64,000 nt of DNA, from the NCBI GenBank assembly GCA_964016885.1, contig OZ024742.1, positions 99,572,001 through 99,636,000 on the forward strand. Reading direction: 5' to 3'. This DNA is from Eledone cirrhosa. Taxonomy: Eukaryota. Positions 3,001 through 58,470 of this stretch are shown piece by piece (position 1 is the stretch's first letter; each line of letters opens with the position of its first letter). A program made the position numbers and the translations under genes. The notes under the pieces are model-generated. The model searched no databases. It was not told the DNA's origin and saw only the letters and a list, made by a program, of their open reading frames with translations.

Positions 3001-3133
3001 CTTGTAGGGCGATTGATTACGAAAGTTCTGTCTCATTATCTCATATCCACTATTTTAAGTGGTGTGAATTATTCAACTGACTTTCTTACAGCCTAGTATT
3101 GGGTCCAGCGACACCGAAATGGTGAAAATCATA

Positions 3134-3318
3134 ATAATTGTTTCTACTTTTGGCACAAGACCAGCAATTATCCCAGTGTATTACTGGTACTTTATTTTAT
3201 CGACCCCGTAAGGATGAAAGGCAAAGTTAACCTCGGCGGGATTTGAACCCAGACCATAAAGGGCCGTAACTCTTTGCTGCAAAGCATGACGTCCGACCCT
3301 CTACCGATACTGCCAATC
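3134..3318 (-). mobile_element. tRNA-derived SINE (family 1), near full length
   Basis: Matches the other copies (B-box GTTCAAATCC, GCCTTTCATCCTTACGGGGTCGATAAAATAAAGTACCAG core, AAAGTAGAAACAATT end); TSD aatcataataat at 3127-3138 and 3315-3326. Confidence 0.9.
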
Positions 3319-3899
3319 ATAATAATGCCGACCAAAATAAGCGTTGGCCTAAACTAAGATATGGACATGCTGATACAAAATAGAATTTTCTATAAAGTTA
3401 TTCTTGAACTGTATAGATTTCATTGCCAGATTAAATACATATGACACGATCAAAACATCGACCAAGTTGAACTCACTTAATGACCGTAGCAGCGTCTATG
3501 TGGTCTCTCGGCCTTTCCATCCTATGAAAAATACGTTATCCATTATAATTCTACATGCGGAGCATGAAAAACGAGAGACGGAGGGACAAAGCCAGCATGT
3601 ATTTGACGAAAATTACAAAGGATATGTCGAATTAAGAAAAGGGATTTAACTCCGTACACGATTGTTTGTATAACTACACCACACATCAGAGAAACAAAGA
3701 CCACACATCACTACTAATATTGATCGGCAATGTATGGCTGAATAGAGAGAAATAATTAACCGTTAGCCCGATATCCCACCACATTGTGTAAACTACATCA
3801 CGCTCACACACGCATTACTGATAGCAAGTATGGAGGAGGACTTCTTATACGAAGTCACCGGATTGTCTGCCAGAAAATTTTGATCGGATGTCGGATTCC

Positions 3900-8170: not shown

Positions 8171-8356
8171 TGGTTTGGCAGTATCGGTAGAGGGTCAGAC
8201 AACATGCTTTGTATCACACAGTTACGCCCCCTTCTGATCTGAGTTCAAATCCTGCAGAGGTTAACTTTGCCTTTCATCATTACGCTGTCGATAAAATAAA
8301 GTACCAGTAATGCACTGTGTAATTGCTGGCCTTGTTCCAAAAGTAGAAACAATTAT
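8171..8356 (+). mobile_element. SINE family 1 copy
   Basis: Same head, core and tail as the other copies. Confidence 0.88.
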
Positions 8357-9354
8357 TTGTAACCTTAACACCTAAATAACTAAGAGATTCCGTGAGATTC
8401 TCCATGATCTTTACAAAAATCTAGGTTAATCTATCGGAACAGTTTATTTCAATATCGTCAGCTTCCTTCATATTGCATTTAACCTAGATACTTTGCAATA
8501 TACCAAGTGCAAAACAAAAACACAAACAAACAATATTCATCAGTATTTACAAATTACTGAATCACCTCAATGGTTTATTCCGAATACTACTATTTCTTTT
8601 CTGCTTAAAACTATCTACTTTATCTGTTACTGAATCAGGACATCCAATTTACAACGAAATAAACAACAAAAGTGACTACTAAATAAATATAAAATATAAT
8701 CTAAATACAGATGTAACACGTATAAATTATAGAAAGAGATAAATGGAAAGATATCCTGTTCTGTTTAATTGTACAAGGTGTAACAGTACTAGCAACACAT
8801 TTATTTCAAATTCCAACCGAAGCATTTCTCTAAACATCACAAATTCGATAATCTACTTAACCCTCTAAATATTAAATTCTTTTATAAAATCACGCAGAAT
8901 TTTGCATAAACATTAGAGAATTCAAATACTTTGAACATATTTCTATTTTTAATTAAATCGACACCAATAACTGTTAACTTAAATGAAATGTTCAGTTCAA
9001 ATGACAGAACTAATATACCAGGTTTAATACCAACTAGAACTCAACTGCATATATAACTTTAACTGCAAACTCTTTTTTTAAAAAACGATCTTATCAACAT
9101 AGAAGTATATTTAGAAGCCAGATCAAGAATATCCGATAGCTTGTTTTTGAGCGGTATTTTGGATTTAAAGTCTATGAAAACACCATTAGTATAAAAATAG
9201 AAACTTTTCTTTTATATTTTGCAAACGAATAAACAATAAAACCCGTATCAGTTTTGCACATCTGAATCATATGAAGTAACATTCTGCAGTTTTCAGTTAA
9301 TTGACATACAGAATTTCTCTTGATTTATAGAATGGACACACACACACACACACA

Positions 9355-9393
<39 letters not shown>

Positions 9394-9416
9394 TGATCGT
9401 TTATTATTTATCGATA

Positions 9417-9606
9417 GGGCGGTGGATTGGCAGTATCGGTAGAGGGTCGGACGCCATGCTTTGGATAATTTAGTTACAGCCCTTGTCATTCTGAGTTCAA
9501 ATCCCGCTGAGGTTAACTTTGCCGTTCATCCTTACGTGGTCGATAAAATAAAGTACCAGTAATACACTGGTAATTGCTGGCCTTGTGCCAAAAGTAGAAA
9601 CAATTA
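9417..9606 (+). mobile_element. SINE family 1, full length
   Basis: gggcggtggattggcagtatcggtag...agtagaaacaatt; TSD attat(t/c)tatcgat at 9403-9415 and 9603-9615. Confidence 0.92.
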
Positions 9607-10069
9607 TCTATCGATCTCTAATGTGATATTTATGCTCCGAGGTTAGTCGAACAGTTTTTTGTATATGATCTATTTCTAGCGTTGCCACTGACCGCATTCA
9701 TCCTATTGAAATCTGAAATGTTATTCTTACTCTACTGGTGGCTTTAGTAATGGATGGCCTCCCGTTTTTGAGATCTAATATATGCCTGAAGTTATAAGTT
9801 GCCCAATGGTGATTGCTTCACTATTTACCGATGGTAATCAATGTTAATTTCCTGCCATGAAATAGTACCATATAGATTTCATAAAAGTTTAGTGGCATTG
9901 TAAATATAATACTTATACTTGTTCTCAAGAAAATATTATATATGTGGTTTTCCATGATATTGGCAGTGTGCAAGCGCTCATAGAGATATCATAGGGCTGC
10001 ATAATCTTTATATTATATATCGATCACTTTATCTATCTATATATATATGTATGTATATATGTATATATA

Positions 10070-10217: not shown

Positions 10218-10408
10218 ATTAAGTTCTCCACGCTTTTGTATATCTCCAAATCCATTCAAGGGAACAGCTAGATGATGTAAAACGGAGTATAAGTATCAAA
10301 ATGAAAATCTGAAGGCAGGGTAGAATTCCAATCATTTTAATCCCGACACATGTTTCAATAAGAGATAGATCGATCGTAAAGCCATGATCAATTATCACTG
10401 ATCTCATA
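10218..10408 (-). mobile_element. PLE 3' terminal (pLTR) fragment; 10293-10408 duplicates 11308-11421
   Basis: About 115 bp near-identical direct copy; it ends inside the hammerhead core. Confidence 0.65.
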
Positions 10409-10414
10409 TATATA

Positions 10415-10937
10415 TTTTTTCTAGGGCGGGTAAAATTCCCGAGATCCATGAACGAGTTCTCTCCAGCGGTCTCTGTCCATCATTATCGCTGCCATGTCCT
10501 GCGTCTCCAACAGACCAGTGTCTGTCCTTAGGGCATCAACACACGTTAAACTTGGCCTGCACCCCCACCCAGCGTGTCCACGCAGGTGCCGCCACAGGAG
10601 CACCAAGCGCAACGCCAACCCCGGTTGCAGCGAGCACGCCTAGCCAACCCCAGTCTCCCCCGTGTCAACCCCGAGCTGACCCCTGGGAGGCTCCCACACA
10701 GCCCCGTGCCCCTCATCCCCAGTGTATACGTACTAATATCCAGAGCCATTCCCAGCACTCTCGTGCAGCATCCATCCACCATCCGAGCGAGCCTCCCGGT
10801 CAGTGTCCAAGTCCCAGACCTGCATAGCAGCACAGACACCACCACAGCAACGAAGAGGCGGACCCTCAGGTCTCCATGAAGGTCCGACCTCCACCCCGAC
10901 CCCAAGCCTGTTGGGAGTGCGGGGGATGGTGTGGTTG

Positions 10938-10941
<4 letters not shown>
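10415..10941 (-). mobile_element. 5'-truncated RTE-clade LINE copy, A-to-G hypermutated
   Basis: The C-terminus [35 protein letters not shown] is near-identical to 43735-43855. The upstream part reads SVLLCRSGTWTLT / DGCCTRVLGMAL, which are RTE motifs altered by A>G changes. Confidence 0.9.
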
Positions 10942-10980
<39 letters not shown>

Positions 10981-11246: not shown

Positions 11247-11307
<61 letters not shown>

Positions 11308-11312
<5 letters not shown>

Positions 11313-13046
11313 AAATGAAAATCTGAAGGCAAGTTAAAATTCCAATCATGTTAATCACGAGACATGTTTCAATAAGAGATAGATCGATCGTAAAGCCATG
11401 ATCAATTATCACTGATCTCATCAGGTGAAAATAAATTATCTTCAAATTCTTGATATGAGGGAGAAAATTAGCAATGTTCCCTCACAGAGTTTATTCTTTC
11501 ATATGAAGATCCAGTACTCAGAAATAAGGCGACTGCTATCATCTTCAGTTAGGGTCATAAAACTGTCAAATCTCCATAGATGCAAAGGACGCTGGAAATT
11601 AATCAGATCTGTAGAAATACAGTCGGTCACAGTTAATGTGAGTGGGTACACAGACACTCAACACACATACACACCGGCTCGAGGTCAAACATAAAAAATA
11701 TATATATTATATATATATATACACATATCAACACAGCATCAAACCTCTAGAACCATAGAAGGTCACAATTAGTGTGAGTGGGTACACACACACTCTCACA
11801 CACACGGAAGCGATGTCATAGAAAAAAAACAACAAATATAAGAAGAATATACCAACACAGCACTCACCGAAAGTTCGTTTACAAAACAACAAATGCTACA
11901 TTGGTCAAATCTCCATTTGACCATGTAAATTGGAAATATTGGGTTAACCACAGCCCCATACACATACATACACACACACAAGCAAGTAAGTTCAGTTCAG
12001 TGTTCTGTTATACATGTATAGATTAAATTGTAACATCCGTATATTCAAGTGTATGTTATGGTATATACACATCCGTATCGTCCCAAAAAGTGTATGTCAT
12101 GTATATACACATCCATGTGAAGAGCAAGCAATCAGCTCATATCGAACTCAGTATGTACCGCTGTCCCATTGAGAGTCTGAGTCCCCAGAACCGTGCATGT
12201 AAGCAACCGCAATGTAGGCCAGTAAGGGGCTCCGTGTAGGGTTGGGTATTTGGGTTATTGTGTCAGTAGTGCGATTTCCGGTCGAATGGGCCCTTGGGCT
12301 TTTAAGATAGGTGTTTGAGTGGTGGAGGTTTGTTATCCAACACAAAAGGTAAAGTAAATAACAAAGGATAGCAAAACCCAGAGGATGTGTGTAGGCCCAT
12401 TATTTGTGTGTATTATTGTTCAATACGTAACTGTGAGCACTCTATGGTTAGATGGTCACGGATCAAAACCTAGTGTAGTGTTCAATCGGTAGGAACGTGA
12501 CCAGTCGCAACTGTGGGAACTCAATGTCTAAAGAAAACTGTGTGGGTACTGTGTGTAGAATTATGTATAGAGAGCGTAATCGGTCCTAACTAGCTATAAC
12601 CCAACCGAGAGAACTCAATGGTTAGGGTATCTTCAAGTAAAGGTAGATGCGCGTAATCAGTCTTACCTGAGTGTGTAATCAATTCTAACTATTTACTAGC
12701 TAGGTATTCTAAAAGTGTACTCAGCCGTGAGAACTCTGTGGAAACAAGTCAGGTACCGTTTGTAAGTGTGAAAACAATCTTAGCCGTCTAACTACCTGAG
12801 TGTGTGACTGTCTGTTTATTGAGAGAATTCTATGGCTAAAGTAGAGAGGGAGGAGTTAGTGGTAGGTTACCTTCCAAAAATCCTGCGGAAGGTTTTCGAG
12901 GTTCTATGTTGGCGATTGCTGAAAAAATCTGCTCTCCTATTATTTAATAGGGGGGCACCTTTAATAATATTAAAGGTTTCAGCTACACATAAATTGCAAA
13001 CACCAGTGCTGCCGTTATAAGGCTGGGCTGAGCAAATTATGGACCA
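11308..13046 (-). mobile_element. 5'-truncated Penelope-like element: GIY-YIG C-terminus, long 3' region, hammerhead
   Basis: 12867-13046 translates WSIICSAQPYNGSTGVCNLCVAETFNII..LLNNR (PLE endonuclease end); hammerhead at 11355-11428 on the same strand. Confidence 0.7.
11355..11428 (-). ncRNA. Minimal hammerhead ribozyme motif
   Basis: Minus strand: TCAC CTGATGA [imperfect stem II] GAA A catgtc T C GTGA; stem I is TCAC/GTGA. Confidence 0.65.
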
Positions 13047-13925: not shown

Positions 13926-16309
13926 ATAATAATAAAAATTAAATACATCGATAATAATAATAAGGCAATTAACCATAATATTAACCATAATTTAATTATA
14001 ATTATAATAAGAAACCTAGCATAAACTCTAAAACTAACAGAAGGAATAGAACTAGAAACATAATCTGGTATGCTCCTCGATTTTCACTAAGTATTAAAAC
14101 ACCTTTAGCTAAACTATTTTTTAAAGCTCTTGATAAATGTTTTCCCAAGGCTCATAGATATTATTTAATCTTTATCAGACATACAATTAAACTATCTTAC
14201 TCTACTACTATGAACCTAGCACAAAATATAAATAGAATCAATAATAGAAATCTAAACCTTAACCAGAATAGCACTAATAACTCTAGCAATATCCAATATA
14301 ATAATACTGTTCCGAATAATAAAAAAACTCTGATAAATGTAATTGTAGAATTAAATCTAACTGTTCTTTAAAAAATAACTGTTTAGTTAAAAATGTGGTC
14401 TATAAGTGCAATGTCAAAACAAATGATAATATTTTTAACTATGTTGGCTCAACTTCTATAGACTTTAAATCTCGTTTCAATAACCATAAATGATCGTTTA
14501 ATAATATTGGTAAAAAATCTTCAACTTCTCTATCCAACTTGATATGGAACTTAAAATCCAAAAATAGAGATTATTCTTTATCTTGGAATATAATTGCAGA
14601 GCACCTGCTTACTATAACACAGCTTTATCCAAATTTTGCAATTTGCGTGTTGAAGAAATTTTCTTCATACTTAAATGTAAGAACTCCATTAATTTACGAA
14701 ACAATTTATTTAGTTCTTGTAAACATCGCCAAAACTCAACTTTTAGATCTATATATAAAATATAATTACACGTTTAATCTTCTCTACATAATGTTTACAT
14801 TATCCAAACACTTATAATCTCATTTCTTAAATTATATGCATATATGTTCATAAATATTCTAAACATTTAAATTTAAATTTAATGTAATTCTAATTTTAAT
14901 ATCTTTTACTTCTTAAATATATATAATTTAGTTCTTAAATCGTTACTTTTTAATATTTTTACTTCTTAAATATCTTCATTTTTATCTTTATTTATCTTAC
15001 TTCCAAAATATCTCATAATCTTTTTAGAAAATCACTTAAATTTTTCTTTTAAAATTACTTATTTCCCAAAAAACTATTTTTTGGGTCACCTTAATATTTT
15101 TAATATATTGTTTAGAATTTTTCAAATATTTTTAAATATTTTTAAATATTTTAAAGTATTTTTAAATATTTCTCAATATTTCTTTATATTTTTGAATAAT
15201 TTTAGGTTTTTAATTATATTTCCTGAATAATTTTAGGTTTTTAATTAATTTTAAACACTTTTTAATTTTTTTAAAAAGGTTTTTGAGTATCTTCGGAGTC
15301 TTTTTGAGATCTTTTAAAAAATCTCTTGGGAAGTATTTCCAGGAATTTTCAAGAATTTTGTCTAGAATTGTTAATATTGTATAGTCTTAATGTTTAAATG
15401 GTTTTAGTATTTTCTTATACTTTTAATTAATTTTTTTATTTTTTTTTATTTTTTTTATTATTTAATATTAGAGTTATCACCAATAACTAACTCTGGCTTA
15501 ATATATCTTTAAACATATCTTTGTCAAAATGATCTCATAATAACTAATAAATGAACAAAACTGGGATTTTCAATATTTTTCCAATGTAAAACATTAAAAT
15601 ATGTAAGTAATCTTATTGACTCAGTTAATTTAATTTAATTTAATTTAATTTAAATACTTACACTAAATATAAACTAGTATCCCTCATAATTTATCATCTA
15701 TAACATGATATACCCCTCTATCCACTCATATATCTATCCTTATATCTACATTTTATCCTATGCTTCTACTTCATATTTATTTAAATCTATTTTTAATATA
15801 TTTTAATATAATTTGATATATTTTAATATATTTTAATATATTTTAATATATCTTTATTTTTAATATATCTTTATTGTTTCTATATATTTAATTTTCTATA
15901 TACTTATAATAGTAAATCAATATTTATTATAATAGAATTCTAACAATTATTAGTAAATATACGTAACATATATATGTAACATAAACATAAGACTTATTTA
16001 CGTTATATGAACTCATCCTCGGATAAGCTTCTTTCTCCGTTCTTTCTTCACTTTATTTCTTCACTCTACTTCTACATATACTAATATTTTATTTTATTTT
16101 ATTTTCTCTCTCTTCTTTTTTTTCTCTCTCTTCTTCCCACAGTGTAATTTAAATAAACGGTTGTTATTTTTCAATTTTTCGGATATTCATTTGCATAGTC
16201 ACACAGAACTTTGAATTACCATCAATAACATTTTTCACTATCCAGCGAATTTTCAACCGTCAAGGTTGATTTCCACGGTTATGTCAATATTTATGAAACA
16301 AATTTTGCA

Positions 16310-16497: not shown

Positions 16498-16834
16498 CTG
16501 CGGCCACTTCCGCTTTGTATCCTTTTTTTAATTTAAATTGGTCTTCCTTTCTTTGTGTCATAAGATCACGTCTACCTGCCAACACTCATCTCCTTCTCCT
16601 GCTCCTCCTCTCTGAATCTTTTTTTGTTTTATCTGCCGGTCACCCACCACACAACTTTACCGAGTGCAGGCCACTGTTTTCTGTCTTTTGAGGTATATTT
16701 GCACAACTTTCTTGCTGTCACTGACGGCATTTGGCTGTTTTACTAGCTATTCTCCCGTTGAGCTTTCGAACTATGTCTATCAATTTCAAAATGGTATAAG
16801 CATGAATGTTTTATAGACATTAATTACTTCGCTT

Positions 16835-17023
16835 AGGGCGGTGAATTAGCAGTATCGGTAGAGGGTTGGACGCCATGATTTCTAGCATAGTTACGTCCCT
16901 TTACAGTCCGAGTTCAAATCCCGCCGAGGTTAATTTTGCCTTTCATCCTTACGGAGTCGATAAAATAAAGTACTAGTAATGTACTGGCTAATTGCTGGCC
17001 TTGTGCCTAAAGTAGAAACAATT
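16835..17023 (+). mobile_element. SINE family 1, full length
   Basis: TSD attaattacttcgct at 16819-16833 and 17021-17035. Confidence 0.93.
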
Positions 17024-17159
17024 AATTACTTCGCTAAATTTCATCAAGACCTCGTCATGTTTCGTGATCTGTTTTGTTCACAACAGTCAATTCTAATACT
17101 ATATATGTTTCTGGGTGTGAGTATATGTTTGTGTATTATTATTCAAATTACTGAAACCA

Positions 17160-20085: not shown

Positions 20086-20110
<25 letters not shown>

Positions 20111-20120
20111 ATGTATATAT

Positions 20121-20310
20121 ATAATTGTTTCTACTTTTGGCACAAGGCCAGCAATTACGCAGTGTATTACTGGTACTTTATTTTATCGACCCTGTAAGGA
20201 TGAAAGGCAAAGTCAACCTCGGCGGGATTTGAACTCAGATCGTAAAGGGAGGTAACTATGCTGGAAAGCATGGCGCCCGACACTCTACCGATACTGCCAA
20301 CCCATCGCCC
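20121..20310 (-). mobile_element. SINE family 1, full length
   Basis: Reverse complement of the consensus. Confidence 0.92.
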
Positions 20311-20338
20311 TTGAATATATAATATATAATCCGTATAA

Positions 20339-20375
<37 letters not shown>

Positions 20376-20379
20376 AATG

Positions 20380-21518
<1,139 letters not shown>

Positions 21519-26706: not shown

Positions 26707-27157
26707 CATACATATTACTTTTCTACATTTGCAGTAACTCCAAGTTGCATCCCTAGATATATATATATATATATATTTATTTATTTATGTAAGCGACTAT
26801 GTGTGTCTGTGTGTACTCCTATTATTTATTTATGTCCCAAAACTTTGAGGCTCTACAAAAAGACCTGAAAATAAGTACTAAATTAGATATGATAGATTAA
26901 ATAAATCCTTCCGAAAGTATGTGCTTCCGCATGGAGGTAGTCTTATTACTGAAACTGTTAAAATATTATATATATAGTAGGGGTGTATCTTAAATCATAT
27001 TCTATTTGTTTATATACAATGAGTGACTCACTATCAGAGAAAAATATTTTCGAAAATTTTACGGAAATTTGTTTGTCTATTCTGTTGTGACCAAGCCAGA
27101 GTTGCAGTTGAGAATGCAGGAGAGCACTGTTTCAAGTTTCATTAATATCTCATAAGT

Positions 27158-27349
27158 AGGGCGGTGAATTGGCAGTATCGGTAGATGGTCGGTTGCCATG
27201 CTTTGTGGCATTGAGTTACGGCCCTTGCCATTCTGAGTTCAAATCCCGCCGAGGTTAACTTTGCCTTTCATCCTTACGGTGTCGATAAAATAAAGTACCA
27301 GTAATACACTGGGTAATTGCTGTCCTTGTGCCAAAAGTAGAAGCAATTA
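27158..27349 (+). mobile_element. SINE family 1, full length
   Basis: 17-bp TSD attaatatctcataagt at 27141-27157 and 27346-27362. Confidence 0.94.
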
Positions 27350-29304
27350 ATATCTCATAAGTGACATTCACTCAACCGCTACTGACATGAAAATTGACTA
27401 GAGTCTGTATAGATTATGCATGATGAACATTTACTGGCGATACCAGTAAATATCTGAAAATGTTCATTTACAAATAGTACAAACTTGGGCGGTTGCATTT
27501 TATTGGCAGTAGCACTGAGATAGCATTAAGCATAATAGGGATATATATGAAGATATATATTATATGTTTATATACGATAAACATATGAGAGGTGATTTCA
27601 CAAATCGGAAGGTTATTGTTGCAAAATGTGGTCTCCAACTACAACCCGGCTCCAACAGCCCAAAGTCAGCAGCTGGGAAACCGTAAGCCTACCCAGCTAG
27701 CCAACTTACTTCGACCGGACGAAATAGATGCACCAGGCTGGATGTCTTGTGTAATGTTGTTTTTAGCCGGCTCTTTTTACCACCCCACCGAACGTAAACT
27801 GACTGCTCTCGCTGCCAACCTCACACCAACTCTTTGCATTGGCAACTCCACTAGTTTTAAAAGTCTACCCCCAGTAAAACCCACAAAATTTCGTGCATCA
27901 TACTTCAAATCAATCACGTGATACATTGTCCGTGTTTCCTCGCTTTCTTTTGTAGATCTGTGATGCAGTGTTTCGAATTAGAGTGATACTATTTGCAGTT
28001 GATGATTGACTTTACAATCTCCTTCGTAACACTATGTTGGATAATATAAGTAGTCAATGTCACATATGTACGTGTGAGACTTTCGAATGGAACAACTTTA
28101 TAATATTAAACCTGATCTATGTCTATAGAACACTAACTAGTAAAGCAGTGTAGAATAAAAAGAAATTTGACCTTACTCCTAACACTATTTTACATTCATT
28201 TATCCGTCTTTTTCAAAACTCTAAATAGAAAAGAATCTGCACAGAATAGTTCAAATGTTATTTCGCTAAAACAGTATAACAAGAAACAAACTCGTCCAGA
28301 TGTGAAAACATGCCTACCTAACATCGTAGTGATTTTCCCCGCTTCATCTGCCTGAATACATTATTAGAAAAATCTAAATTTTCAATGGCATAAAAATAGT
28401 AAAGTATTTAATATTTAATCAAATATAAAGAAGAAAAAGAAGCAATACAAAAGACTATAAATGAAAAGAAAAGGAGGGGAAGTGCAAGTGTTATTAACCA
28501 AGGGGAAGAAAAGGGGAAATGGGGTGACAGACACTACTCATAATTCAGAGAGGTGTTTAGGCTACGCCCCACAGAAAAAATAGCAAAAGCATTGCCATTG
28601 ACAATGGCCAGACATTTGAAGTTGTTGCTCCTGTCTGTCTTGAGTAGATTCCAGCATTTCTTCAAGATTTACCTCTTCTCGGATTCAGTCGTTGAATGAT
28701 GGTGTTGTAACAGCTTATAGAACTTAAAAGTTTTATGATTGACACACGGATCATTTCCACGTGGAGCCTTCAGTTGTTCTATCAATTGAACGTGTTGCCT
28801 GTGAATTAGCGTGTAAATGGTTGAGTATTCCACAGAAACGTTTACCACCTCTCCTTGTAATTCTCAAAACAGAAGCAACTTCACAAAATCTGTGACGGGT
28901 CCGAACCATTGAAATACATAGACAATCGTTGTGACAGGCTTCCATCACAGTTTCCGTCTGATAAATTTCTCTAACAGGGATTGAATCGGCCCGAGGTTAT
29001 GGTAAAAAAACTTGTCCACGAATCCATGCATGGGGTACGAACTGTGAACACCCATGACTGCTGCACTAACTTGTTAACTCTTTAGACTCAGCCATATTAT
29101 GTCCGCACGCCCAAAATATGTATATATATATATATACCCTAGAAAGTATATATATCCATTCAACATTTATATGTGAGAAAACCCACAACCCCTCCATCTC
29201 AATTATACTTTTAAAAAGCAGAACTACGAAACCGGCAAAGAACCAAATAAATATATATTTAATAAAAAAAAGACTCCAGCTGAATTTTCGATTTCATCTT
29301 TTTT

Positions 29305-29847: not shown

Positions 29848-31260
29848 TTTTTTATTGGCCAAAAGCGCCGTCATACAAAAACAGAGACAGTGTAAAGAAG
29901 ATATAACACATAATAAAATTATAACAATGAAAATTTCTCTGTAGGGTAGATAGTACCCAGAGGTAACTCATGAACCTAACCAATCCTAACAGACGCTACT
30001 CTACATGGTCACCCTAGGAAGGCGCCACTCAACTTTCCAAACTATCCAGCATACAGTGGTATTGTCAGAGTAGTCCCATTTACACGGACCATATTCGCTA
30101 CATTCACCCAAATTTTAACAAAAGTACTGGGGGACAGTAATTCCCTCTCCACCTTCACTGTAGGGTAGATTCTGCCGATGGACTGGGTCCATAACTGGAT
30201 CCGTCGTACACCTGATAACAGCTGTTCGACAAATGGACAACTGCTTGCAGAACAGTTCTGTCGCTTTGTGCATATCTCCGACAGGTCCACCTGACATCAA
30301 TACCGTGGCTGTAGAGTTTCTATCAAACCGTCAGTTCTCCCCGGCAGTACTCCCAGCCAGAGATGTCTGGAATGTATCCATAGACACCAGTTCGAGACTT
30401 CTCCGTAACAGCCTGGTTAAATCGAATCCGTCGATGCCCAGAGATTTTCCGAAAACGTTTCGAATTTGCTCACCACTAGTCCTCTATAGAAGCCCAGACG
30501 CAGCCCCTCAACGTCCCTGTTTGAGCAGTATGTCATACAACAGCTCCAGCTTCCGCAGTAAACGCTCGAGTGTCAGTACGTAGAGAAGGAAGAGAGGAGC
30601 ATTCTTGGGGGATCAAGCGCATGATCTGGAACAGTTCCGACAGATGGCCGTTGACTTTGACCACCGAGCAGATACTTCTGTTCACTGCAGCGATTCAGCC
30701 TTTCAAGATGGGACCGAAGCCGGCTCTCTTGAGGACAGCGTCACCTCTCTATGATGTATCGTATGAGGTGGAAATTGTTGTGTATGGACATGGTCGGGAT
30801 TGCACTAGTCTGTGCCTCCCTCACTAAGCTATCGAGGATAAGCGAGACACTCGTTGCTAGCACATTGGCGAAAATCTTGAACTCTGTGTTCAGCAGAGTT
30901 ATGGGCCTTGAATTATCAATGACATCCCTCTTATTCTCATATTTCCTCATCAGCGTTACTAAGTCCTGACTCACCGAACAGGGAATACTTCCGGTCTGCT
31001 GACAGTCGTAGTAGACAGCTTCGAGGACATCGGAGTGTACAAGTCTGGAATATCTACGTAAAACGCATAGGGCAGATTATTGAAATCCAGTGATTTGCTC
31101 CCTGTACAGCCGACCATGGCTTTCCACATCTAGGCTGCTTTTCTTAGCTTTTCACGACACTCCGCATCAGTCACCAAGAGTCGAGGAGGTGAAGTCTGCC
31201 TCCCTTTGCGAACCCCCGCCCTCCCCGAACTGTTGTGCAAAGATGCCTATTCTTATTTAG
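29848..31260 (-). pseudogene. Degraded, internally deleted L1/Tx1-clade LINE
   Basis: DNSRPITLLNTEFKIFANVLA..AQTSAIP..IHNNFHLIRYII (Tx1-type RT start); C-terminal remnants; 3' end ..gccAATAAAAAA on the minus strand. Confidence 0.8.
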
Positions 31261-31984: not shown

Positions 31985-32575
31985 AAACAGCTCTACAAGC
32001 AGAAAATGCAGATATGTAAGAGGTACTTACATAACCATAGTGCCGTGTTTCAGGTTGAGGAGGGGTAGGGCGGGGTGGGAAGGAGGTAGAGGGATTTGTT
32101 TGTCGGCTGGCGTTTAAAAAGAAAAAAAAGGGGTAGTCGTATTTAGCCATCGGGCATTAACACTGGCTTAAGGTATTTGAAAGTTGCAAAATTTTTGTGC
32201 ATGCAGTCGGGCAGTGTTCAGAGAGTTTGTTCAGTAGCGGGCCCTTGGCGAATAAAATTTCGTAGCTCTCTAAAATACAAAGGTCGCAGTGGAGTTCCTT
32301 TTGAGGTCCCAAACATAGGAGGCGAGTGTTGTCTGGTTTGATTTGTCCGGTCCTCTGAAGGAGTGGGTATGGGCATACCACCGGGTCTTAAAGTTATTGG
32401 AAGTCATGCCGATGTAAGTCTTTTTGTTGTTGCCATCATCGGTGCCTGAGATGACATCGCATTTGTATACGATATCATTTGTCAGGCATTTGTTTTCAAG
32501 TAGGCAGGCTTCCTTATTTAGGCAATTACACAAGGCCCCAATCCGGGGATTGGGTTTGGAGGTGGTTGGCTTATT
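31985..32575 (-). mobile_element. Penelope-like GIY-YIG endonuclease remnant
   Basis: CNCLNKEACLLENKCLTNDIVYKCDV..TYIGMTSNNFKTRWYAH..TTLASYVWDLK, then in another frame CDLCILESYEI..LLNK. Confidence 0.88.
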
Positions 32576-34212
32576 AATTTTTTATGTATATACATATATA
32601 CATATTGAGAGCACCACACAACCAGTTGTTTATGTCAACTTTCGCTTAACTAAAGTGCTAACCTATTCTCTATAGGCTTTACACGTGTGTGAAACAGCCA
32701 AATTTAGACTTCCGTGGGGCCCCGACACCATCGTGGTGTTAGCAACTCTTCCACATGGCAGTTCGAGCAGCATTCTATGCAACTTTCCGATATCTGGTCT
32801 TTTACTCTGACCATACAGATATCACTATGCATTTAACCGAATCAACCTCTGAAGCGGAAACGACAACGTTTGCCTTGAGCCTCGAAGTATCAATGGTCTA
32901 CCATAATGAGTGCTTTCCATTTAGCCCAATGATCAAAGACCTTCTGAAGCCAAGTTTATTCCCTCCCACCTGTTGAGAATTCGTGGATAGACCTGTACGG
33001 AATTGTTTACCTCTGCGCTTTCACGACTATGCTCTTGGCGACTAGCGCCAACCTCTGTGTTGAGCAGATTCATGGGGTGGAAATTTTCAGTTATGATCCC
33101 CATTTTTCCTCATTAGTGGTATCAATTATTGACTCACAGAACTGGAAATTCTATAGTCTTGCTGTTAGTTGCCGTAGACGGCTGTCAAGGCCATTGGCGA
33201 ACAGGTCTTGAATATCTACAGAAAATCGGGGGCTTGAACAAGCAACAGCCTTGATTTGTGAACAAGTGATATTGTTTGATGCATTTTCGAAACCTACCCT
33301 TACAGCAGCCATATTAGTAGAAAAGAGAAATAAATATACATATAAACATAAAATTTGAACGCTGAAACGTGTGGCACTAGAATAAATATTATACATTCCT
33401 TTAGCATTTAGCTGGCCACTTAAATAACAGCAGCACACCTCTCACCCGCAGCTGTGTTAGTAGTATACAATAGCAGAACCATTTCCGGATAACATTGTGT
33501 AAAGACTCAATGTTTAGCAGCTATTTCATTTCATTCTTTTCTCTTTCCTTCCAAAGCGCTTTTACCAATTTGGTAAAAGTTTCAGTTTCCGCCGATTACC
33601 CCCTAAATAGTCGAAACATACCTACACCACCACCACCACCACCACCGACAACAACAACACTGCAGTGTTAGTATCCACCAATACTAACAATATCACAATT
33701 ACAGCTTCACATATTAACTATCAACATCATTACAACATCACTACTGCTACAATTATATACTATCACCACCACCAGCACTACAACAACCACCACCATTACA
33801 TTACAACTATCACCATTACAAATATATAAAATTATCATTACCAGCAACAAAACACTACAAGATCTAAAACTATATAATGTCACCAACACCACCACTTCAG
33901 CTCCGTGTATATACCAGCCACTCCACTATCACCATTACCATCACAATCACGAAAATCACTACCATTCACTTGCTTTAGTCTTCCTGATAAAACATTTGTT
34001 ATTGTTGGCGTTCATGTAGTGGTGGTACTGGTTGGTACACTGTTGTTATTGTTATTGTTTCAGTTGTTGTTACACTATTATTATTGTTGTTGTTACAGTT
34101 GTTGTTACACTGTTTTTTTTATTGTTGTTATTGTTGTTTTAGTTTTGCTTAAATTCTTATTCAACTTCGTTATCATCATTTTCAGCATTTTTTTCCATTT
34201 TCTTATATCCGC

Positions 34213-36655: not shown

Positions 36656-36695
<40 letters not shown>

Positions 36696-36777
36696 GTATG
36701 TGAATTATATTTAAATTAAAAAAAATTGTACTACATTATATGCCTACCAACAACACACGATATATATATATATAATA

Positions 36778-37489
36778 TATAAGATCAAAAGATGGTTAAA
36801 AGAGTTCCATGTATTTTATTATGCGCATTTCAAAAACAAATATCATCATGCAATAACATTTGTGTTTTCATCAGATAAAATAGGAAGACATGATATGAAG
36901 GTTAAAAAACACTTGTGAATAGTGCAGTTTAAAATCAACATATGAAAAGTAGTTTTAGATTGATGTGTGATATTAGGAAAGATGAAAAAGAGGAGGAGAT
37001 GAGAGTAAAAAGTGGAGGGGGCGGAGTATAATGAGGAAGAATAAGATAGGAGGAGAGATGGGTGATAGAGAGAGAGAGATAGCTTTTATAACTGAGAAAA
37101 ATATATTGGAAGATAATAAAAGAAACAATATATTTTCTCAGTTAAAGAAGCTATCTCTCTCTCTCTATCACCCATCTCTCCTCCTATCTCATCCTTCCTC
37201 ATTATACTCCACCCCTCCACTTTTTACTCTCATCTCCTCCTCTTTTTCATCCTTTCCAACCTCCCACCCCCCTCAAAAAATCTTTTTTTCCCAATATCAC
37301 GCATCAATCTTAAACTACTTTTCATATGTTGATTTTAAACTGCACGATTCACAAGTGTTTTTTAACCTTCATATCATGTCTTCCTATTTTATCTGATGAA
37401 AACACAAATGTTATTGCATGATGATATTTGTTTTTGAAATGCGCATAATAAAATACATGGAACTCTTTTAACCATCTTTTGATCTTATA
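36778..37489. mobile_element. About 710-bp fold-back PLE pLTR with two divergent hammerheads (36814-36880 minus; 37387-37453 plus)
   Basis: Arms are reverse-complementary around about 37110-37125; TTTTAT CTGATGA aaacacaaat..atttgttttt GAA A TGCGCA T A ATAAAA. Confidence 0.9.
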
Positions 37490-37609
37490 CATTATGTATA
37501 CTCCAGTCCTACAAACTGTAGAGTGCTTCTTATCCGATATCTGCATTGCTTTATTGTACTACAATAAAACTCACCTCCTACATATATATATATATATATA
37601 TATACAGTA

Positions 37610-37800
37610 TATATATAATATATTAACAAATGGAAACTATATTTATAAAACCATATTTATTTCATTATACATATTTCAAGGGCCACCAGAGCAAACTATG
37701 GTGCGCTTTCATCAGATAAAGTATATTATAGGTTATTTTTATAAATAAATATTGACATACCCTTAAAAAATGCAATCATTCTGGTTGGAATCTCCTGGAT
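37610..37800 (-). mobile_element. PLE family A pLTR fragment with hammerhead (37660-37720)
   Basis: Reverse-complement homolog of 23880-24060 with intact CTGATGA and GAAA cores. Confidence 0.85.
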
Positions 37801-37837: not shown

Positions 37838-38018
37838 TATTGGCAGTATCAGTACAGGCTCAGACGCCATGCTTTCCAGCATAGTTACGTTCCTTAACGC
37901 TCTAAGTTCAAATCCCGCTGAGGTTGACGTTGCCTTTCATCCTTACGGGGTCGATAAAATAAAGTACCAGTAATGCACTGGGTAGTTGCTGGCCTTGTGC
38001 CAAAAAGTAAAAACAATT
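37838..38018 (+). mobile_element. SINE family 1 copy
   Basis: Matches consensus; slightly 5'-truncated. Confidence 0.88.
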
Positions 38019-39449
38019 ATATTATATTATATTTTATATATCGTGTGTTGTTGGTAGGCGTAAAATAAAATGTAGTACAGTTCTTTTTTTATTTAAATAT
38101 AAGGATGGATAGGAAAGCCGACTATATCGACACCAGTAAGTGACTGTGACTTTGTTTGTGCTTAATCTGAATTGAGTTTTATGTGGCGCCTGTTCATGAC
38201 GCTAAATTAAAACAAGAATAATTTACATCTTTTCGTACAATAAGCCGATAAAATACAACTATGTCTATGTAAATATTTTGGTAAACTTGTACCATTCTAT
38301 CCATCAGAATTTCGATCTCACACATAGTTTGCTACAATATTTTGGTGTTGTGATATTAAAAATGTAAACAATCGATTTATTTGAAACTTGTATTGATAAA
38401 CTCAGTAAACATTTCTGAAAACGTGCACTCGTGTATAACACAACCTCTTTTTACGCCTCAACCAAAGTTCAAAATATTTCGTATCATACATGAGAAGATA
38501 TTACGGTCAGTATTTATACCAACATTTTTTAGCACGTTATGAACTATACCTGCTTAAATTATCGGGTTAATTTATTTCTCTGTCCATTCCCCTACCTCCC
38601 TCTACCTGTCCCTCATTATACACATAAAAGAAGAAAACTTTAGGAAATGTAGTCCTAGATATATCTGTAAAGCACGTTTAAATAGAATTCTTTATATTTG
38701 CCTTTTTGACTTTTCTAAGTGGATCTATATATTGTGTGTCATCTCCAACACTCGCGCGTGTGCAGACATCTGTCATGTCAAAAGTTGTTTTATCCCCATT
38801 GCCTTCCTTTAAGATGAAAAAAACAACAACTTCTGATTCTGTTCATCGTTCTATATATTTATATTGGCTTGCTTTTATTAATATTTTTTTCACAGCTTTC
38901 GTATTTAAGTAGTTTGTTTTCCTTAAAACTCTGGTCATAACCTGCAACCTAAGGTCTCAAGGTTAAATGTCGAGCGTGTTTATTTTTTTCTCTCAATATT
39001 ATGTCTGCTCAGAGCGAACCAAACTTTGGAAGCCTTCCAAGCTCATGTCTAATGCCAACCTTCTTTAAACTCTTTGAAATATATTGCTAAACACTCTTAG
39101 TGTTCCAATTATTACTATAATGACTTCTAATTTATTTAAGTAAATAGATATTTTACTTTTTTGTTTTAAAGTTTATTGTATTTTCTACATTCTGTTTCAT
39201 TTTCTGTTATGTCCTTCGACTTCTATGTCTGCAATCCTGTATTTATGCTCCCTAAAACCGCTTTATGACCTTAAAAGTCAGGATGTCTGTTTTCTATATA
39301 ACGTAAATATATTGGATGTTAAATGCTCGCTCAAGTTCTTTAACATTATTATCTTATTTGATACATTCTTCGGACTGTTTTCATATTACTTCCTTCCAAA
39401 CGTTCCATCTCTCCTTATCGATCTATCTCTGTACACACACATACACAAT

Positions 39450-43322: not shown

Positions 43323-43858
43323 TAGGGGCTCTAGCCTTAGTGCGGTTAGATCGACTCTCCATATTTCTTTTCAATGGCTGACAATACCTTACCGGCACCA
43401 CTCGAATAAGGTAATTATTTAACCCATAAATGGAGCCCTAACAGGTACTATCACCCCGGGCCAGGGCAGACCTGGGAGTCATGACAACTAAGGGGTAACT
43501 CCACATTCCCCCACATCTCCTGAACTCCCGAACTGGAGCCTTGCCACTGGATGTAGTCTAATATCATACCCAGAGCTGTATGGGAGCATCCCAAAAGTCA
43601 GCTCAAAAAGTGACACAGAGGAGACTGAGGTTAGCTGGACATGCTCACCGACATCCAGAGTTGACATTGCACTCAGTACTCCTTTGGGAGCCCCTACATG
43701 GACACACTAGACGAGGAAGACCAAGGTTAACGTATGTTGATGCCCTAAGGACAGATACTGGTTTGTTGGAGACGCAGGACATGGCAGCGATGATGAGGGA
43801 CAGGGACCGCTGGAGAGAACTCGTCCATGGATCTCGGGAATTTTACCCGCCTTAGATT

Positions 43859-43860
<2 letters not shown>
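43323..43860 (+). mobile_element. RTE-clade LINE 3' end (43575-43860) joined to a probably inverted RTE 5' segment (43323-43574)
   Basis: QRRLRLAGHAHRHPE..VLLWEPLHGHTRRGRPRLTYVDAL..WRELV (RTE C-terminus). The upstream part resembles, from memory, octopus RTE 5' sequence in antisense. Confidence 0.82.
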
Positions 43861-43903
<43 letters not shown>

Positions 43904-44330: not shown

Positions 44331-45975
44331 GTTTGTACCAGCAAGAGGCACAACTGGTGCCCTCTTCCTTGTGAGGCAGTTACAGGAAAAGTACCTAGCT
44401 AAATGTAAGCCACTCTACCTGGCATTCGTCGATCTCGAGAAAGCCTTTGACAGAGTTCCACGTGCTATAATCTGGTAGGCTCTTAGAAACTAGGAGTAGA
44501 TGAATGGCTTGTCAAAGCTGTACAAGCCATGTATAGGAGAGCAGTCAGCAAAGTTAGGATTAGCAATGAGTATAGCGAGGAATTTAGCGTACAGGTTGGT
44601 GTCCACCAGGGCTCTGTTATTAGCTCTCTCCTGTTCACATAGTCCTGCAGGCAATAACTGAGGAGTTTAAGACCGGATGCCCATGGGGGCTCCTGTATGC
44701 AGATGACCTCGCACTTATAGCTGAATCTATGGTAGAATTAGAGAAGAAATTCCAAACTTGGAAGCAGGGACTAGAAAGAAAGGGTCTCAAAGTCAACATG
44801 ACAAAGAAAAGGTCCTTGTAAGTAGACGAGAAAACAGAACCCAGATCCCCTCAGGGAAATGGCCTTGCTCAGTATGTAGGAAAGGTGTAGGTAGGAACTC
44901 CATTCTCTGCCCCAAATGCAAACACTGGGTACACAAGAGATGTAGCGGGATCTCAGGAAGCTTAATTAAGAATGTAGGCTTCACATGTAGCAGCTGTGCT
45001 GGGACAGCAAGCAGCAAACAGCCACAGGAAACAAGTACCACCAATCTTTGGGAGGGCTCTGTAGAAACAGTAGACAGCTTCTGCTACCTAGGTGACCGAG
45101 TTATCAGCAGAGGTGGGTGTTCAGAAAGTACAATATCTAGGGTAAGAACGGGATGGAAGAAGTTCAGGGAACTACTGCCACTGCTAGCTGCAAAAGGCTT
45201 CTCCCTCAAAATGAAAGGCAGACTGTATGATGCGTGTATCCGAACAGTAATGTTACATGGTAGTGAGACCTGGGCGCTGAAGGTGGAAGACTTACGTAGA
45301 TTAGAAAGAAACGAAGCCGGCATGCTCCGATGGGTGTGTAATAGTAATATACGCGAACGGCAAAGCATAAATGAATTGAGAGAGAGACTGAGCATAAGAG
45401 GAATCAAATGCTGTGTGCAGGAGAGGCGGTTGCGTTGGTATGGACATGTGATGCGTATGAAGGATGACAGCTGCATAAAAAGGTGCAAAGCCCTAGAAGT
45501 CAATGGAAACAGCGGAGTGGGGAGACCCAAGAAGACCTGGGATGAGGTGATAAAAGCCGACCTTACCCAATTACACCTCTCAAAGGCGATGACACATGAC
45601 CATCACCTCTGGCGTCACGCAGTAATACAGAGTACCCGACCTCCCATGGGTACAAGCTGAAGCATATAAACAATATGCGCCCACACCCTCCCACTGCAAA
45701 GTGGTCGTGGGGGTGCCACGGCAAAAAAGCACCCAGCCCACACTGTAAAGTGGACGTGTAGGCGCCACAGAATTAAGCACCCAGCACTCACTGTAAATGA
45801 GGTTGGTGTTAGGAAGGGCATCCAGCTGTAGAAATCAAGCCAAAATCAGTTCCTGTATGAGCAAGGCATGGTCAGCTGACCAGACACTGCCCACAACAGG
45901 ACAGCCCGTCTAACCCATGCTAGCATGGAAGAACGGACGTAAACGGTGATGATGATGATGATGATGATGATGATG

Positions 45976-46045: not shown

Positions 46046-47456
46046 CATACATATATATGCAAGAGAATGCACACGTGCACATCCACAAGCCTTGATAAGA
46101 ATGCCTTTCAAAGCCAGAAGAAAACGTTATATTATCTATGCCTCATTTGTACTTAATGTACAAATCTAGTTGTACCATCTCATATCAGTGTATGACTCTG
46201 GAACGAAATTCCATAGGAATATTGAGGATGTTGTTTCCGTGTTTTAGTATATAGCAGTATTCAAGTAATAGTATGTAGCATCTGGGGTTTCGTCAGGGTT
46301 TACACTATTTTTGATGTGAATATAATTACCCTTATATTTTTATTACCATTATATTTATGAACTGATAATTGTTATGAGATATAATTAATGAGGTTTGATT
46401 GGCCGACGCCCAGCTTTACGCCAACGTAGTATGTATTGTAAAAGCTTTTCCTATTTTATATGCTTGACTTGTGATAGTTTGCATACAATGCGAAACCGTA
46501 CTAAATATTTAACTGTCGAACAGTTGGAATTGGCCGACGCTCAAATTTACGTCTTCCTAATGCACACACATTGTGGAGGCTATTTCTGTTGTTTTTACCT
46601 AAGGTATACATGGTAGGGGAAGGAAGTGTGTTTACTATCTAATAAAAGAATCAAGAAAATAAATAATTTGCGCAAGAAAACCAAGCGCCACCCTGTCCCG
46701 GAAGAAAACCTACGAACTTATGATTATCAGACCGAAACACTAATCGATAATCTACGAGCTAAAAACTTAAAGTCGTATAAAGAAATTTGTTTGTCCGTGT
46801 TCATGACACGGCTATGTGGTTATCATTTGGATTTGATCCGTATAGACAATAAATGGTTAAAACATATCGCTAGAAGTCTGACACTTCTTTATTTATTTTA
46901 ATCAAAAATGATTGCCATATTTCAATTTTTCATCATGTTTATTGTTTTTGAATGTATGAGTATGATATTACGTGCAAAATTGGCAGTTGGTTTAGAATAT
47001 TCAACACAGCGGTATGGGGAAATTGAAGTATGCGATAATTGTGTTACTAGAAAGTCCCATATTGGCTAGTTTGATTAACATTACCGTAGTTAAATGAGTG
47101 AAGCCAGTATAAGTGTAATATAATCTGAGCGCGCACACGAGCGTGTGTTTATATATGTGTGAGGGGGTTACTGAGTGTATTGAACTCTCTTAAGTGTACT
47201 TCTTGACAAACATTACAGCACGTATATTTACGGGGGCGCTGGATTGGTAGATTCATTAGAGAATCATACAAAATGCTTTGTCCTATATAATTACCGACCT
47301 TTAGGCTTTCAATTCAAATCCCATCAAAATGAAGATTTCAAACTTTGAAGTCAATAAAATTGACGTATTAAGATTAATATAATTGACTTTTATACCTGTC
47401 ACAAATTGTTGTAATTTTGCCTAAATGGTTACACAAATTTCTGTAAGTTAATTTAA

Positions 47457-47646
47457 TAATTGTTTCTACTTTAGGCACAAGGCCAGCAATTACCCAGTGC
47501 ATTACTGGTACTTTATTTTATCGACCCCGTAAGGATGAAAGGCAAAGTCAACCTCGGCGGGATTTGAACTCAGATCGTAAAGGGACGTAACTATGCTGGA
47601 AAGCATGGCGTCCGACCCTCTACCGATACTGCCAATCCACCGCCCT
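47457..47646 (-). mobile_element. SINE family 1, full length
   Basis: 17-bp TSD taagttaatttaataat at 47444-47460 and 47647-47663. Confidence 0.94.
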
Positions 47647-47997
47647 TAAGTTAATTTAATAATATTTCTTAATCTTAATTTTAGTTATTAGAGCATCCAT
47701 TTTTTTTTTCTTGAATAAAAAGGCATAATATTCTCTTCGAAGTTTCAACTTTTCAAACACATATCCGTTTTCCTTCATCCATTTGTTTAATAGTCGCATA
47801 TTCTATTATGTCCGTGTACTTTTGTTTTCGTAGGTGGCGGGAAAATACCAGTTAATTAACTACTGGGCTGTGCCAGAAATAAGGAGCTAACTCCGATGAA
47901 TATCTTTCAATATATGTGAATATATATTTTAATATATATAATAATTTTCACGTAATTTACTGATTGATTGATTATGTGACTGATATCAAGGACGATG

Positions 47998-53250: not shown

Positions 53251-53309
<59 letters not shown>

Positions 53310-53313
<4 letters not shown>

Positions 53314-53442
53314 TACTTTGGGAGGGTCATGTTGCCAATAAGAAACACACGCACCAGTTGCTTTCACTTCAATTTATTATAATAAATTTATAATAAATTT
53401 ATAAATTTATAAATTTCTGGTTGGTTCCACAACCAGATAGTT

Positions 53443-53493
<51 letters not shown>

Positions 53494-53678
53494 CTGGTTG
53501 TGAAACCAACCAACCAACCAGAAATTTATAAATTTATTATAAATTTATTATAATAAATTGAAGTGAACAACTGGTGCGTGTGTTTCTTATTGGCAACATG
53601 ACCCTCCCAAAGTATAACAATATCGGTTTCAACACACGATTTCAGATAAAGAATCTTGCTAAACAAATTCAGAAACGA
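53310..53678 (+). mobile_element. PLE family B terminal fragments in fold-back arrangement around a (TA)n tract
   Basis: 53310-53447 is the inverse of 53491-53622; near-identical to 21300-21518. Confidence 0.9.
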
Positions 53679-55417: not shown

Positions 55418-55507
55418 TGTGCATACTTACATCTATGTATCAGCTTTGCTAGGGCGAGAAATAAAATTCTAATTGTATTTATATATATATATATATACAT
55501 TCATATG

Positions 55508-55690
55508 ATAATTGTTTCTACTTTAGGCACAAGGCCAGCAATTACCCAGTGCATTACTGGTACTTTATTTTATCGACCCCGTAAGGATGAAAGGCAAAGT
55601 CAACCTCGGCGGGATTTGAACTCAGATCGTAAAGGGACATAACTATGCTGGAAAGTATGGCTTCCGACCCTCTACCGATACTGCCAATCC
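55508..55690 (-). mobile_element. SINE family 1
   Basis: TSD catatgataat at 55502-55512 and 55690-55700. Confidence 0.92.
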
Positions 55691-56216
55691 ATATGATAAT
55701 GCCATATATGTATATACACAGAATGAGGTAAACAAAATGTATATATAAACTCATACATTAAGTGAATAGACATGTAAACATGCAAAATATACATATTTCC
55801 TTACAAACTGAAAAAAAAAATGACAAACCAATTTTCAAGCCTAGTTGGGTTTTTGTGAGAATGTATGTATATCATCTATATAACCACAAAGGAATATGTA
55901 ATCGAGAATTTCATATGTACAATAGCTTATACTGTTATCCTGAAATAGAGCTACTAAATTACTTATAATTAGCTCCCATGCTGGTAGTTAATTAAGATAA
56001 AAATTAATCTGTACGCAAAGCTTAATCATTAACATCTATACATCTTATTTAACCTGGTCATCAGGCGTTGGACAAGTATGAAAATACCGCTAAGAGCATA
56101 GCATGTTTAGAGTTCCTATACAACTTCGTATGCAAATGAGGCTAATCAACCCGTTTATACAGACGAAAATCCACCTATTTTTGCCTGTTTCAAAGTCCAG
56201 CATTAGCGAGAAGCAT

Positions 56217-58468: not shown

Positions 58469-58470
58469 AT

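Follow-up and report, generated by a model that had tools for sequence, protein, structure and literature searches.

An A-to-G hypermutated LINE copy in the genome of Eledone cirrhosa and its probable origin from ADAR-edited RNA

Introduction

A-to-G hypermutation attributed to ADAR has been described in the proviral DNA of avian retroviruses, namely RAV-1 (Felder et al. 1994) and ALV (Hajjar and Linial 1995), both as cited in PMC8586724. Here a comparable change is described in a long interspersed nuclear element (LINE) of the octopod Eledone cirrhosa, which lies in a stretch of 64,000 nt (contig OZ024742.1, G000:C3:99572001-99636000, of a 3.0 Gb genome; hereafter the window). The copy in question is a 5'-truncated, RTE-like retrotransposon lacking long terminal repeats (non-LTR), and an earlier reading of the window from its letters (the sequence-only reading) had proposed that it descends from a hyperedited LINE RNA retrotransposed in the germline. 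The present analysis supports this core claim: it is very probable that LINE RNA hyperedited by ADAR was reverse-transcribed into germline DNA and that the edits were thereby made heritable. As in the avian retroviruses, the A>G changes are clustered, lie on the RNA strand, are put down to ADAR and would have been fixed in DNA by reverse transcription. The retroviral cases, however, concern exogenous LTR viruses in infected cells, whereas the present case concerns a germline non-LTR element inserted by target priming, with at least 16 copies and with 5' inversions from which the edit is dated to before integration. By analogy, the pattern may be regarded as a counterpart of the retroviral ADAR footprint in a non-LTR element of the germline.

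A second precedent is the DNA editing by APOBEC of LTR retrotransposons in vertebrate genomes (Knisbacher and Levanon, PMC4866542), where strand-biased clusters of a single mismatch type in individual germline copies were likewise recognised by comparison within subfamilies. That process yields G>A by deamination of cDNA in vertebrate LTR elements, in contrast to the A>G, ascribed to deamination of RNA, in the invertebrate LINE described here. The same screen, which was focused on LTR elements, reported other mismatch types to be very rare and invertebrates to be devoid of such editing. Its supplements may hold counts of A>G clusters. Our literature search, with most subscription papers outside its scope, brought up no description of LINE copies that were hyperedited by ADAR and became fixed in a genome.

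At the level of RNA, hyper-editing of double-stranded (ds) repeat RNA is known from metazoan and cephalopod transcriptomes as dense A>G clusters in which a 5' G is depleted and a 5' U or A favoured; cephalopods edit repeats widely outside the nervous system, and sense-antisense pairing is a known source of the duplex (PMC5625713, PMC9989829, PMC9068888). Those are differences between RNA and DNA, whereas the changes reported below are in genomic DNA. Another octopod LINE of RTE type is RTE-2_OV, which is expressed in the octopus brain and shows signs of recent activity in the genus (PMC9115989). It has a 3' untranslated region (UTR) of ~600 nt, whereas the open reading frame (ORF) of the present family reaches the 3' terminus, the two being set apart by description and not by sequence.

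The A-to-G tract and its presence in DNA

The layout of the edited copy is given in Table 1. With the column majority of 29 further copies from the genome as reference, G stands at 56 of the 95 family adenosines in the copy's 5' 365 nt (10541-10907), against a single T>C change at 78 sites, while the last 120 nt showed no A>G at any of 39 adenosines. Chance would give so sharp a boundary with p ~1e-15, and the clean 3'-terminal ~120 bp described in the sequence-only reading was borne out. A second set of 29 nearest-subfamily copies, picked by their 3' end alone, gave 59/134 for A>G and 0/104 for T>C. At near-invariant columns of the tract, 51 of 94 adenosines were changed, and 37 of these 51 changes are non-synonymous if taken singly. 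Pairwise alignment with the unedited sister copy (43571-43870) returned 33 A>G and 12 other substitutions upstream of window position 10541 and 0/36 A>G downstream of it, close to the earlier hand count of about 30 against roughly a dozen; both sequence examples quoted at that time are present in this alignment. The altered RTE motifs were also recovered, LLYGSETW and DGCYTRML of the unedited copy being LLCRSGTW and DGCCTRVL in the edited one. Since the family has A at the changed sites in both sets of 29 copies, G is the derived state, and the possibility that the family consensus itself carries G was not upheld.

The changed letters are also present in run-level contigs. A contig of run X1 (450 nt) matches 10514-10948 with 0 differences over 435 nt at depth 17.5, which is single-copy depth, and a contig of run X3 matches 10514-10868 with 0 differences over 355 nt; contigs of runs X9 and X4 do not reach the edited part. 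An assembly or RNA-polishing artefact might be entertained in view of the fact that runs X1 and X3 are of one sample with the library kind not on record. Nevertheless, at single-copy depth the run contigs are letter-identical to the assembly through tract, inversion and (TA)n junction alike, and the copy also carries decay other than A>G, for instance a C>T that immediately precedes a new G (position 1804), so that an artefact is given next to no probability. The Gs, which the sequence-only reading had wished to see in DNA reads, are thus carried by contigs of two runs from one sample.

In total, 22 of 468 columns of the edited copy are changed other than by A>G. It is accordingly an old, inherited insertion, and the ordinary mutation that it has gathered since insertion amounts to ~5%.

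Polarity of the change in 5' inversions

The tract does not end where the sequence-only reading had placed its end; it continues into a short inverted arm (10910-10940), in which the A>G change had not been noticed. Within the 31 nt of this arm, read on the + strand, 8 of 10 family adenosines have become G, whereas other positions are changed at 0/21 and T>C stands at 0/8. The first of the eight changes sits at the junction itself, and the arm is contained in the contig of run X1. In the twin-priming model of 5' inversion, the arm derives from just upstream of the body and has its body-proximal end outward. The arm corresponds to family positions 1440-1470, with 1470 outermost, and the body starts at 1501, a geometry also found in many other copies of the family and one that twin priming would produce.

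On the + strand, the body therefore shows T>C and the adjoining arm A>G, which means that the change tracks the sense of the element's RNA and not the chromosome strand. Copy L065 repeats this flip across its junction (arm 5/13 A>G, body 15/99), and sense A>G was also found in the inverted-arm tracts of L071 (14/66), L138 (8/126) and L143 (18/75), with T>C at 0-1 in each arm. Polarity follows the element's sense in all five inverted arms, and it follows from this tie in both arms that the change took place before or during integration. The 5' inversions thus serve as an internal control showing that the change preceded integration, and the inference of an edited RNA also withstands this test, which goes beyond those proposed in the sequence-only reading.

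Mutation of the chromosome after insertion, whether by adenine deamination in R-loops, by damage to the transcribed or replicated strand, or by RNA-templated repair with an edited host transcript, is already largely refuted by the same observation. Nothing specific speaks for it, other than that the window copy is old enough to have collected its 22/468 non-A>G changes. Such processes keep to one chromosomal strand, whereas the body has T>C on the + strand and the arm A>G on the + strand with T changed at 0/8 (p = 0.4^8, ~7e-4), and L065 flips likewise across its junction. The tract also stops at the edge of the element, and post-insertion change in ordinary copies is strand-symmetric. It is considered a scarcely credible explanation.

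It should also be noted that 5' inversions are very common in this family, having been found in 12/28 and 8/22 assessable unselected copies (L032-L060 and L094-L123, respectively).

Recurrence and rarity in the family

Further copies with tracts were sought with edited (A>G-rich) queries and motifs, and 16 were obtained including the window copy, with duplicate loci counted once. Within their tracts, A>G was found at 354 of 921 A, compared with T>C at 2/684 T, G>A at 16/952 and C>T at 13/600; substitutions of all kinds other than A>G number 59. Tract length ranges over 45-817 nt and the share of changed A over 19-69%, the ends differ between copies, and several tracts are flanked by clean sequence on both sides. 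Among the first 11 tract copies, only four non-A>G variants are common to any two copies; none of the four involves the window copy, which has no private non-A>G change in common with any of the 10 others. The differing ends and the near lack of common non-A>G variants indicate separate events.

Inheritance from a G-rich subfamily, or G>A decay in the other copies, could be proposed on the grounds that the edited sites of the window copy overlap above chance with those of L004 (p 0.0006) and L003 (p 0.004). Overlap of this kind is, however, expected from a common context preference and from the choice of copies by likeness. The differing tract ends and the few non-A>G variants in common also speak against descent, as do the A state, which preserves the conserved ORF, and the fully G version of one motif, which occurs once against 6444 native copies. 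The probability of descent is accordingly regarded as negligible.

Tracts are rare. None was seen in 63 copies chosen without an edited query (29 + 30 + 4), which caps the rate near 5%, and the 16-17 found among ~6,000-30,000 copies suggest a rate of ~0.1-0.3% of insertions. Genome-wide counts with two motifs gave 1 and 4 matches for the A>G version and 0 and 0 for the T>C version, all small numbers. In ordinary, unselected copies, rare A>G (60/10840) equals T>C (48/8451) and has no ADAR context; the ADAR-like context that appeared in the background of all copies was gone when unselected copies only were used and was discarded as a selection effect.

Several candidates were dropped from the set of tract copies. 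These were the second piece of L015, L079, L081 and L082, in which A>G fell at older-subfamily sites or was matched by T>C; L090, with 6 A>G in 100 nt among 37 other changes; L132, with 5 A>G; and the array L150-L157, with 11-13 scattered A>G. The array (G000:C12, 17.0-17.5 Mb) consists of eight near-identical long copies ~60 kb apart in a large tandem arrangement, which have in common 11 scattered A>G and 0-1 T>C, and it possibly arose from a lightly edited founder.

Neighbour context

The share of A changed in the tracts of the 16 copies depends on the 5' neighbour (U 54/95, A 126/217, C 64/204, G 78/363; p 4e-21), with a pooled value of 0.58 for U and A against 0.21 for G. Among triplets, UAG was changed at 20/22 and GAH at 30/224. 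In a query-unbiased subset, made up of the window copy and of those sites that lie outside the queries with which the other copies were found, the 5' neighbour gave U 19/26, A 39/55, C 25/52 and G 37/114 (p 2e-6, or 1e-5 without the window copy). The context matches the 5' motif of metazoan ADAR, in which U or A is favoured and G disfavoured, with a weaker preference for G or A on the 3' side (PMC9989829, PMC5625713). Of the two neighbour effects put forward in the sequence-only reading, depletion of 5' G was confirmed, whereas enrichment of 3' G held over all copies but not in the unbiased subset. Both strand asymmetry and ADAR context, the absence of which would have spoken against editing, hold over the 16 copies.

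A change linked to N6-methyladenosine (m6A), the motif of which is DRACH, would be concentrated at GAC and AAC; this was not seen, with GAC being the lowest class (10/77) and m6A context not enriched. The sense-strand G>A clusters that DNA editing by APOBEC gives were not seen either, the G>A count in the tracts being low.

The same data bear on hypermutation by the reverse transcriptase (RT) under unbalanced deoxynucleotide (dNTP) pools, in which, with no RNA editing, dC would be placed opposite rA at low dTTP or dG opposite dT in the second strand at low dATP. This would act before integration and follow the element's sense and is therefore compatible with the inversion test; in addition, A-runs are heavily changed (AAA 49/64) and other changes are slightly raised in the tracts. 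From next-nucleotide effects, however, low dTTP and high dCTP should make extension easiest after a 5' G and hardest after A, and the opposite was seen (G 0.21, A 0.58), while low dATP should disfavour a 3' A, the share of which is 0.40. Isolated As keep the 5' bias (U 43/74, G 67/278), and tracts down to 45 nt with clean flanks and rates of 20-69% are unlike a cell-wide change in nucleotide pools. Hypermutation of this kind is therefore held to be very improbable.

Proposed route from RNA to DNA

If ADAR is the enzyme, the sense LINE transcript would pair with complementary RNA over a few hundred nt (at least 425 nt for the window copy, family positions 1440-1864) and ~55-60% of the adenosines in the duplex would be deaminated. 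The edited RNA would still serve target-primed reverse transcription in a germ cell, with priming starting at the unedited 3' end and the RT reading inosine as G, and a second internal priming on the same RNA would yield the short 5' inversion. The insertion would then be inherited, with independent recurrence at least 16 times in the family, or ~1-3 per thousand insertions. Self-folding of the family RNA as the source of the duplex was rejected, and as long self-duplexes are lacking in this RNA, it calls for a partner strand. The bounded tracts would fit such a partner, for which antisense RNA from resident copies is a candidate; the inverted arms of resident copies come from internal stretches of the element and leave out its 3' end.

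In the terminal 50-nt bins of the 16 tract copies, A>G was found at 1/174 in the last bin, 9/240 in the next and 28/269 in the one thereafter. Copy L003 is edited up to 52 nt from the 3' end, and a young copy of 188 nt (L166:1487-1674), kept apart from the 16, has as its only invariant-column differences four A>G in the last 40 nt. The 3' end is thus depleted of edits but not immune, and an absolutely protected end is ruled out by L003 and L166. The sequence-only suggestion that the 3' end is protected stands as a tendency but not as protection. Its further suggestion of a defence against retrotransposons remains a conjecture, with tract copies being rare and the window copy, through its 5' truncation, dead with or without editing; restraint of the element by editing cannot be read from surviving copies.

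Of 306 codons altered in the tracts, 238 are changed non-synonymously. In L137, the first Asp codon of the FADD motif of the RT is changed, so that the edited RNA could not encode an active RT; this RNA would have been edited after translation or mobilised in trans.

The latter observation also suits a related explanation, in which a resident copy supplied the template as a host or read-through transcript. Such a transcript would have been edited while paired with an inverted copy close by, and would then have been mobilised in trans or, through a template switch, linked to a 3' end free of edits. This would still be ADAR followed by reverse transcription with another source of RNA, and it overlaps with the route outlined above. 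It would account for the sharp boundary and for the tract being richer in non-A>G changes than the 3' part, it would provide L137 with the RT from an unedited message that its FADD codon calls for, and ADAR hyper-editing acts mostly on neighbouring inverted repeats (PMC5625713). On the other hand, the 5' part of the window copy has the same subfamily markers as its 3' part, and no unedited donor with its private changes was found among the best 40 of 2377 candidates. Moreover, L137, L139, L140 and L005 are long and have just 4-7 non-A>G differences, so that their templates were close to the active source. A resident transcript as template is considered unlikely, though it deserves to be kept in view.

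Several points weigh against hyperediting of the element's own transcript, or against the data on which it is based. Self-folding of the family RNA was no better than that of shuffles (z -0.97), and a double-stranded partner has to be postulated. Queries or motifs rich in A>G had been used to find every tract copy, and the statement that T>C tracts are absent comes from the two motif searches with 0 matches and the 63 unselected copies, which are weak alone. The 3' neighbour bias, with p 6e-6 over all copies (G 0.46, A 0.40, U 0.31, C 0.24), has p 0.2 in the unbiased subset, and the 5' bias in the window copy alone is marginal (p 0.05). Non-A>G changes are somewhat commoner inside tracts, at 21/351 against 2/120 in the window copy (p 0.08) and 38/2812 inside against 109/12459 outside in the other 15 copies (p 0.02), for which ADAR alone gives no explanation. 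A screen that covered 213 kb of other repeats, with low power at the estimated rate, gave no private tract, although the window copy, L003 and L137 were recovered in it as positive controls; a further screen gave no tract in the 62 kb of other repeats that it covered. Finally, assays in human cells found L1 RNA to be unedited and its restriction by ADAR1 and ADAR2 to be independent of editing (PMC5224506, PMC8677026). In both settings ADAR would act on LINE RNA or its ribonucleoprotein, but in the human assays there was no editing of L1 RNA and the block was editing-independent, whereas here heavily edited LINE RNA appears to have been integrated.

Should hyperediting of the LINE transcript be correct, it would offer A-to-I edits of RNA a natural way of turning into heritable changes of the DNA, and it would imply that editing-competent ADAR meets LINE RNA in the germline, in contrast to the unedited L1 RNA of the human cell assays. 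Tract copies would allow germline editing to be dated and mapped from assemblies alone. In studies that do not include DNA from the same animal, they could also give rise to spurious 'hyper-edited' RNA reads.

A younger subfamily

Among unselected copies (family positions 900-1984, L026 numbering), 18 substitutions define a younger subfamily, namely 8 A>G, 0 T>C, 6 C>T, 2 G>A and 2 transversions. The difference between 8 A>G and 0 T>C has p 0.009. All eight A>G follow A or U (p 3e-4 against 37% expected), five precede G, several are non-synonymous, and the tree agrees. Private mutations in ordinary copies show neither an A>G excess nor ADAR context. The signal was found after the fact and concerns one lineage, and it could instead be due to RT error or protein constraint. 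It is tentatively proposed, with somewhat less than even confidence, that ADAR may be a germline mutator of this LINE at two levels, with heavy editing leading to rare dead fossil copies and light editing of source RNA to a large share of the substitutions fixed in the active lineage. If the subfamily signal holds, ADAR would also contribute to the sequence evolution of active LINEs; RNA editing would guide how the protein of a retrotransposon evolves, and a datable record of germline ADAR activity across animals would be preserved in LINE copies.

Element family, ADAR genes and other features of the window

An unedited copy of the family (L026:3-1990) has an open frame of 660 aa with RVT_1 (E 7.8e-33), while DUF6451 on the family frame scored 20.6 bits, below the 28-bit cut-off. 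The family is presumably of the RTE clade, judging by its motifs. A family 26-mer has at least 6444 exact matches in the genome, and four family copies were found in 400 kb of unselected DNA. Copies are marked by 5' truncation or inversion and a short tandem-repeat tail, most of them ending in (TAGA)n or (TA)n. The stop codon of the family ORF is the 3' end of the element, directly followed by the (TAGA)n or (TA)n; as there is no 3' UTR, any 3' recognition signal lies in coding sequence.

Exons with A_deamin were found at four loci of the genome. One of these belongs to ADAR2; it carries the CHAE/PCG/SCSDK motifs and shares 94% identity with its Octopus vulgaris counterpart.

Table 1. Features of the edited copy, its sister copy and the SINE-like repeat (window coordinates; SINE, short interspersed nuclear element).
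Feature	Position	Strand	Remarks
Body of 5'-truncated non-LTR retrotransposon (RTE-like LINE), last ~486 nt of element	10420..10907	-	ORF ends at element's 3' end, TAG 10423-10421
A>G hypermutated tract, element's sense strand	10542..10902	-	56/95 A>G, 1/78 T>C
Unedited 3'-terminal 120 nt	10420..10541	-	0/39 A>G
5'-inverted arm of same element, A>G hypermutated on element's sense	10910..10940	+	twin-priming geometry; family positions 1440-1470, body from 1501
Short A/(TA)n tail, 3' junction	10408..10419	-	from sequence
(TA)n flank, 5' junction	10941..10977	.	from sequence; most family copies sit in (TA)n
Unedited sister copy, reference of the sequence-only reading	43568..43857	+	3 A>G among 84 A vs family majority
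SINE-like repeat copies	3131-3329, 8171-8357, 9343-9611, 16834-17026, 20089-20375
SINE-like repeat copies (continued)	27157-27353, 37839-38041, 47448-47647, 55476-55703, 57453-57673

A direct repeat of 120 bp, 93% alike, at 10288-10407 and 11302-11421 brackets the edited copy together with another repeat and microsatellite sequence, ~360 bp in all. A host repeat is continued leftwards by the left copy and rightwards by the right copy, in the manner of a very long target-site duplication; long duplications as a family trait were rejected, being absent in the other family copies looked at. Two A>G or T>C flags from the 213-kb screen were also rejected: L188, which lies in a tandem repeat, and L106, the difference of which is common to a copy of the repeat at 21116-21459 of the window. 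Compared with three relatives, these two copies of another repeat (21116-21459 and L106:2391-2729) show 11-13 T>C on one strand with few reverse changes, a skew at the level of the subfamily.

The SINE-like repeat of ~190 bp is present in about ten copies, 80-97% alike, none with an A>G tract. Further retroelement fragments were located by their translated frames at 44725-45660 (+), at 30741-31076, 58934-59585, 60080-60421 and 61171-63840 (-), and at 13991-14817 and 32270-32581, which we take to be a second RTE-like LINE, other LINEs and GIY-YIG/Penelope-like pieces. At 36657-37618, 58108-58469 and 53305-53623 there are long inverted (palindromic) self-matches that consist in part of microsatellite and are potential sources of dsRNA if transcribed.
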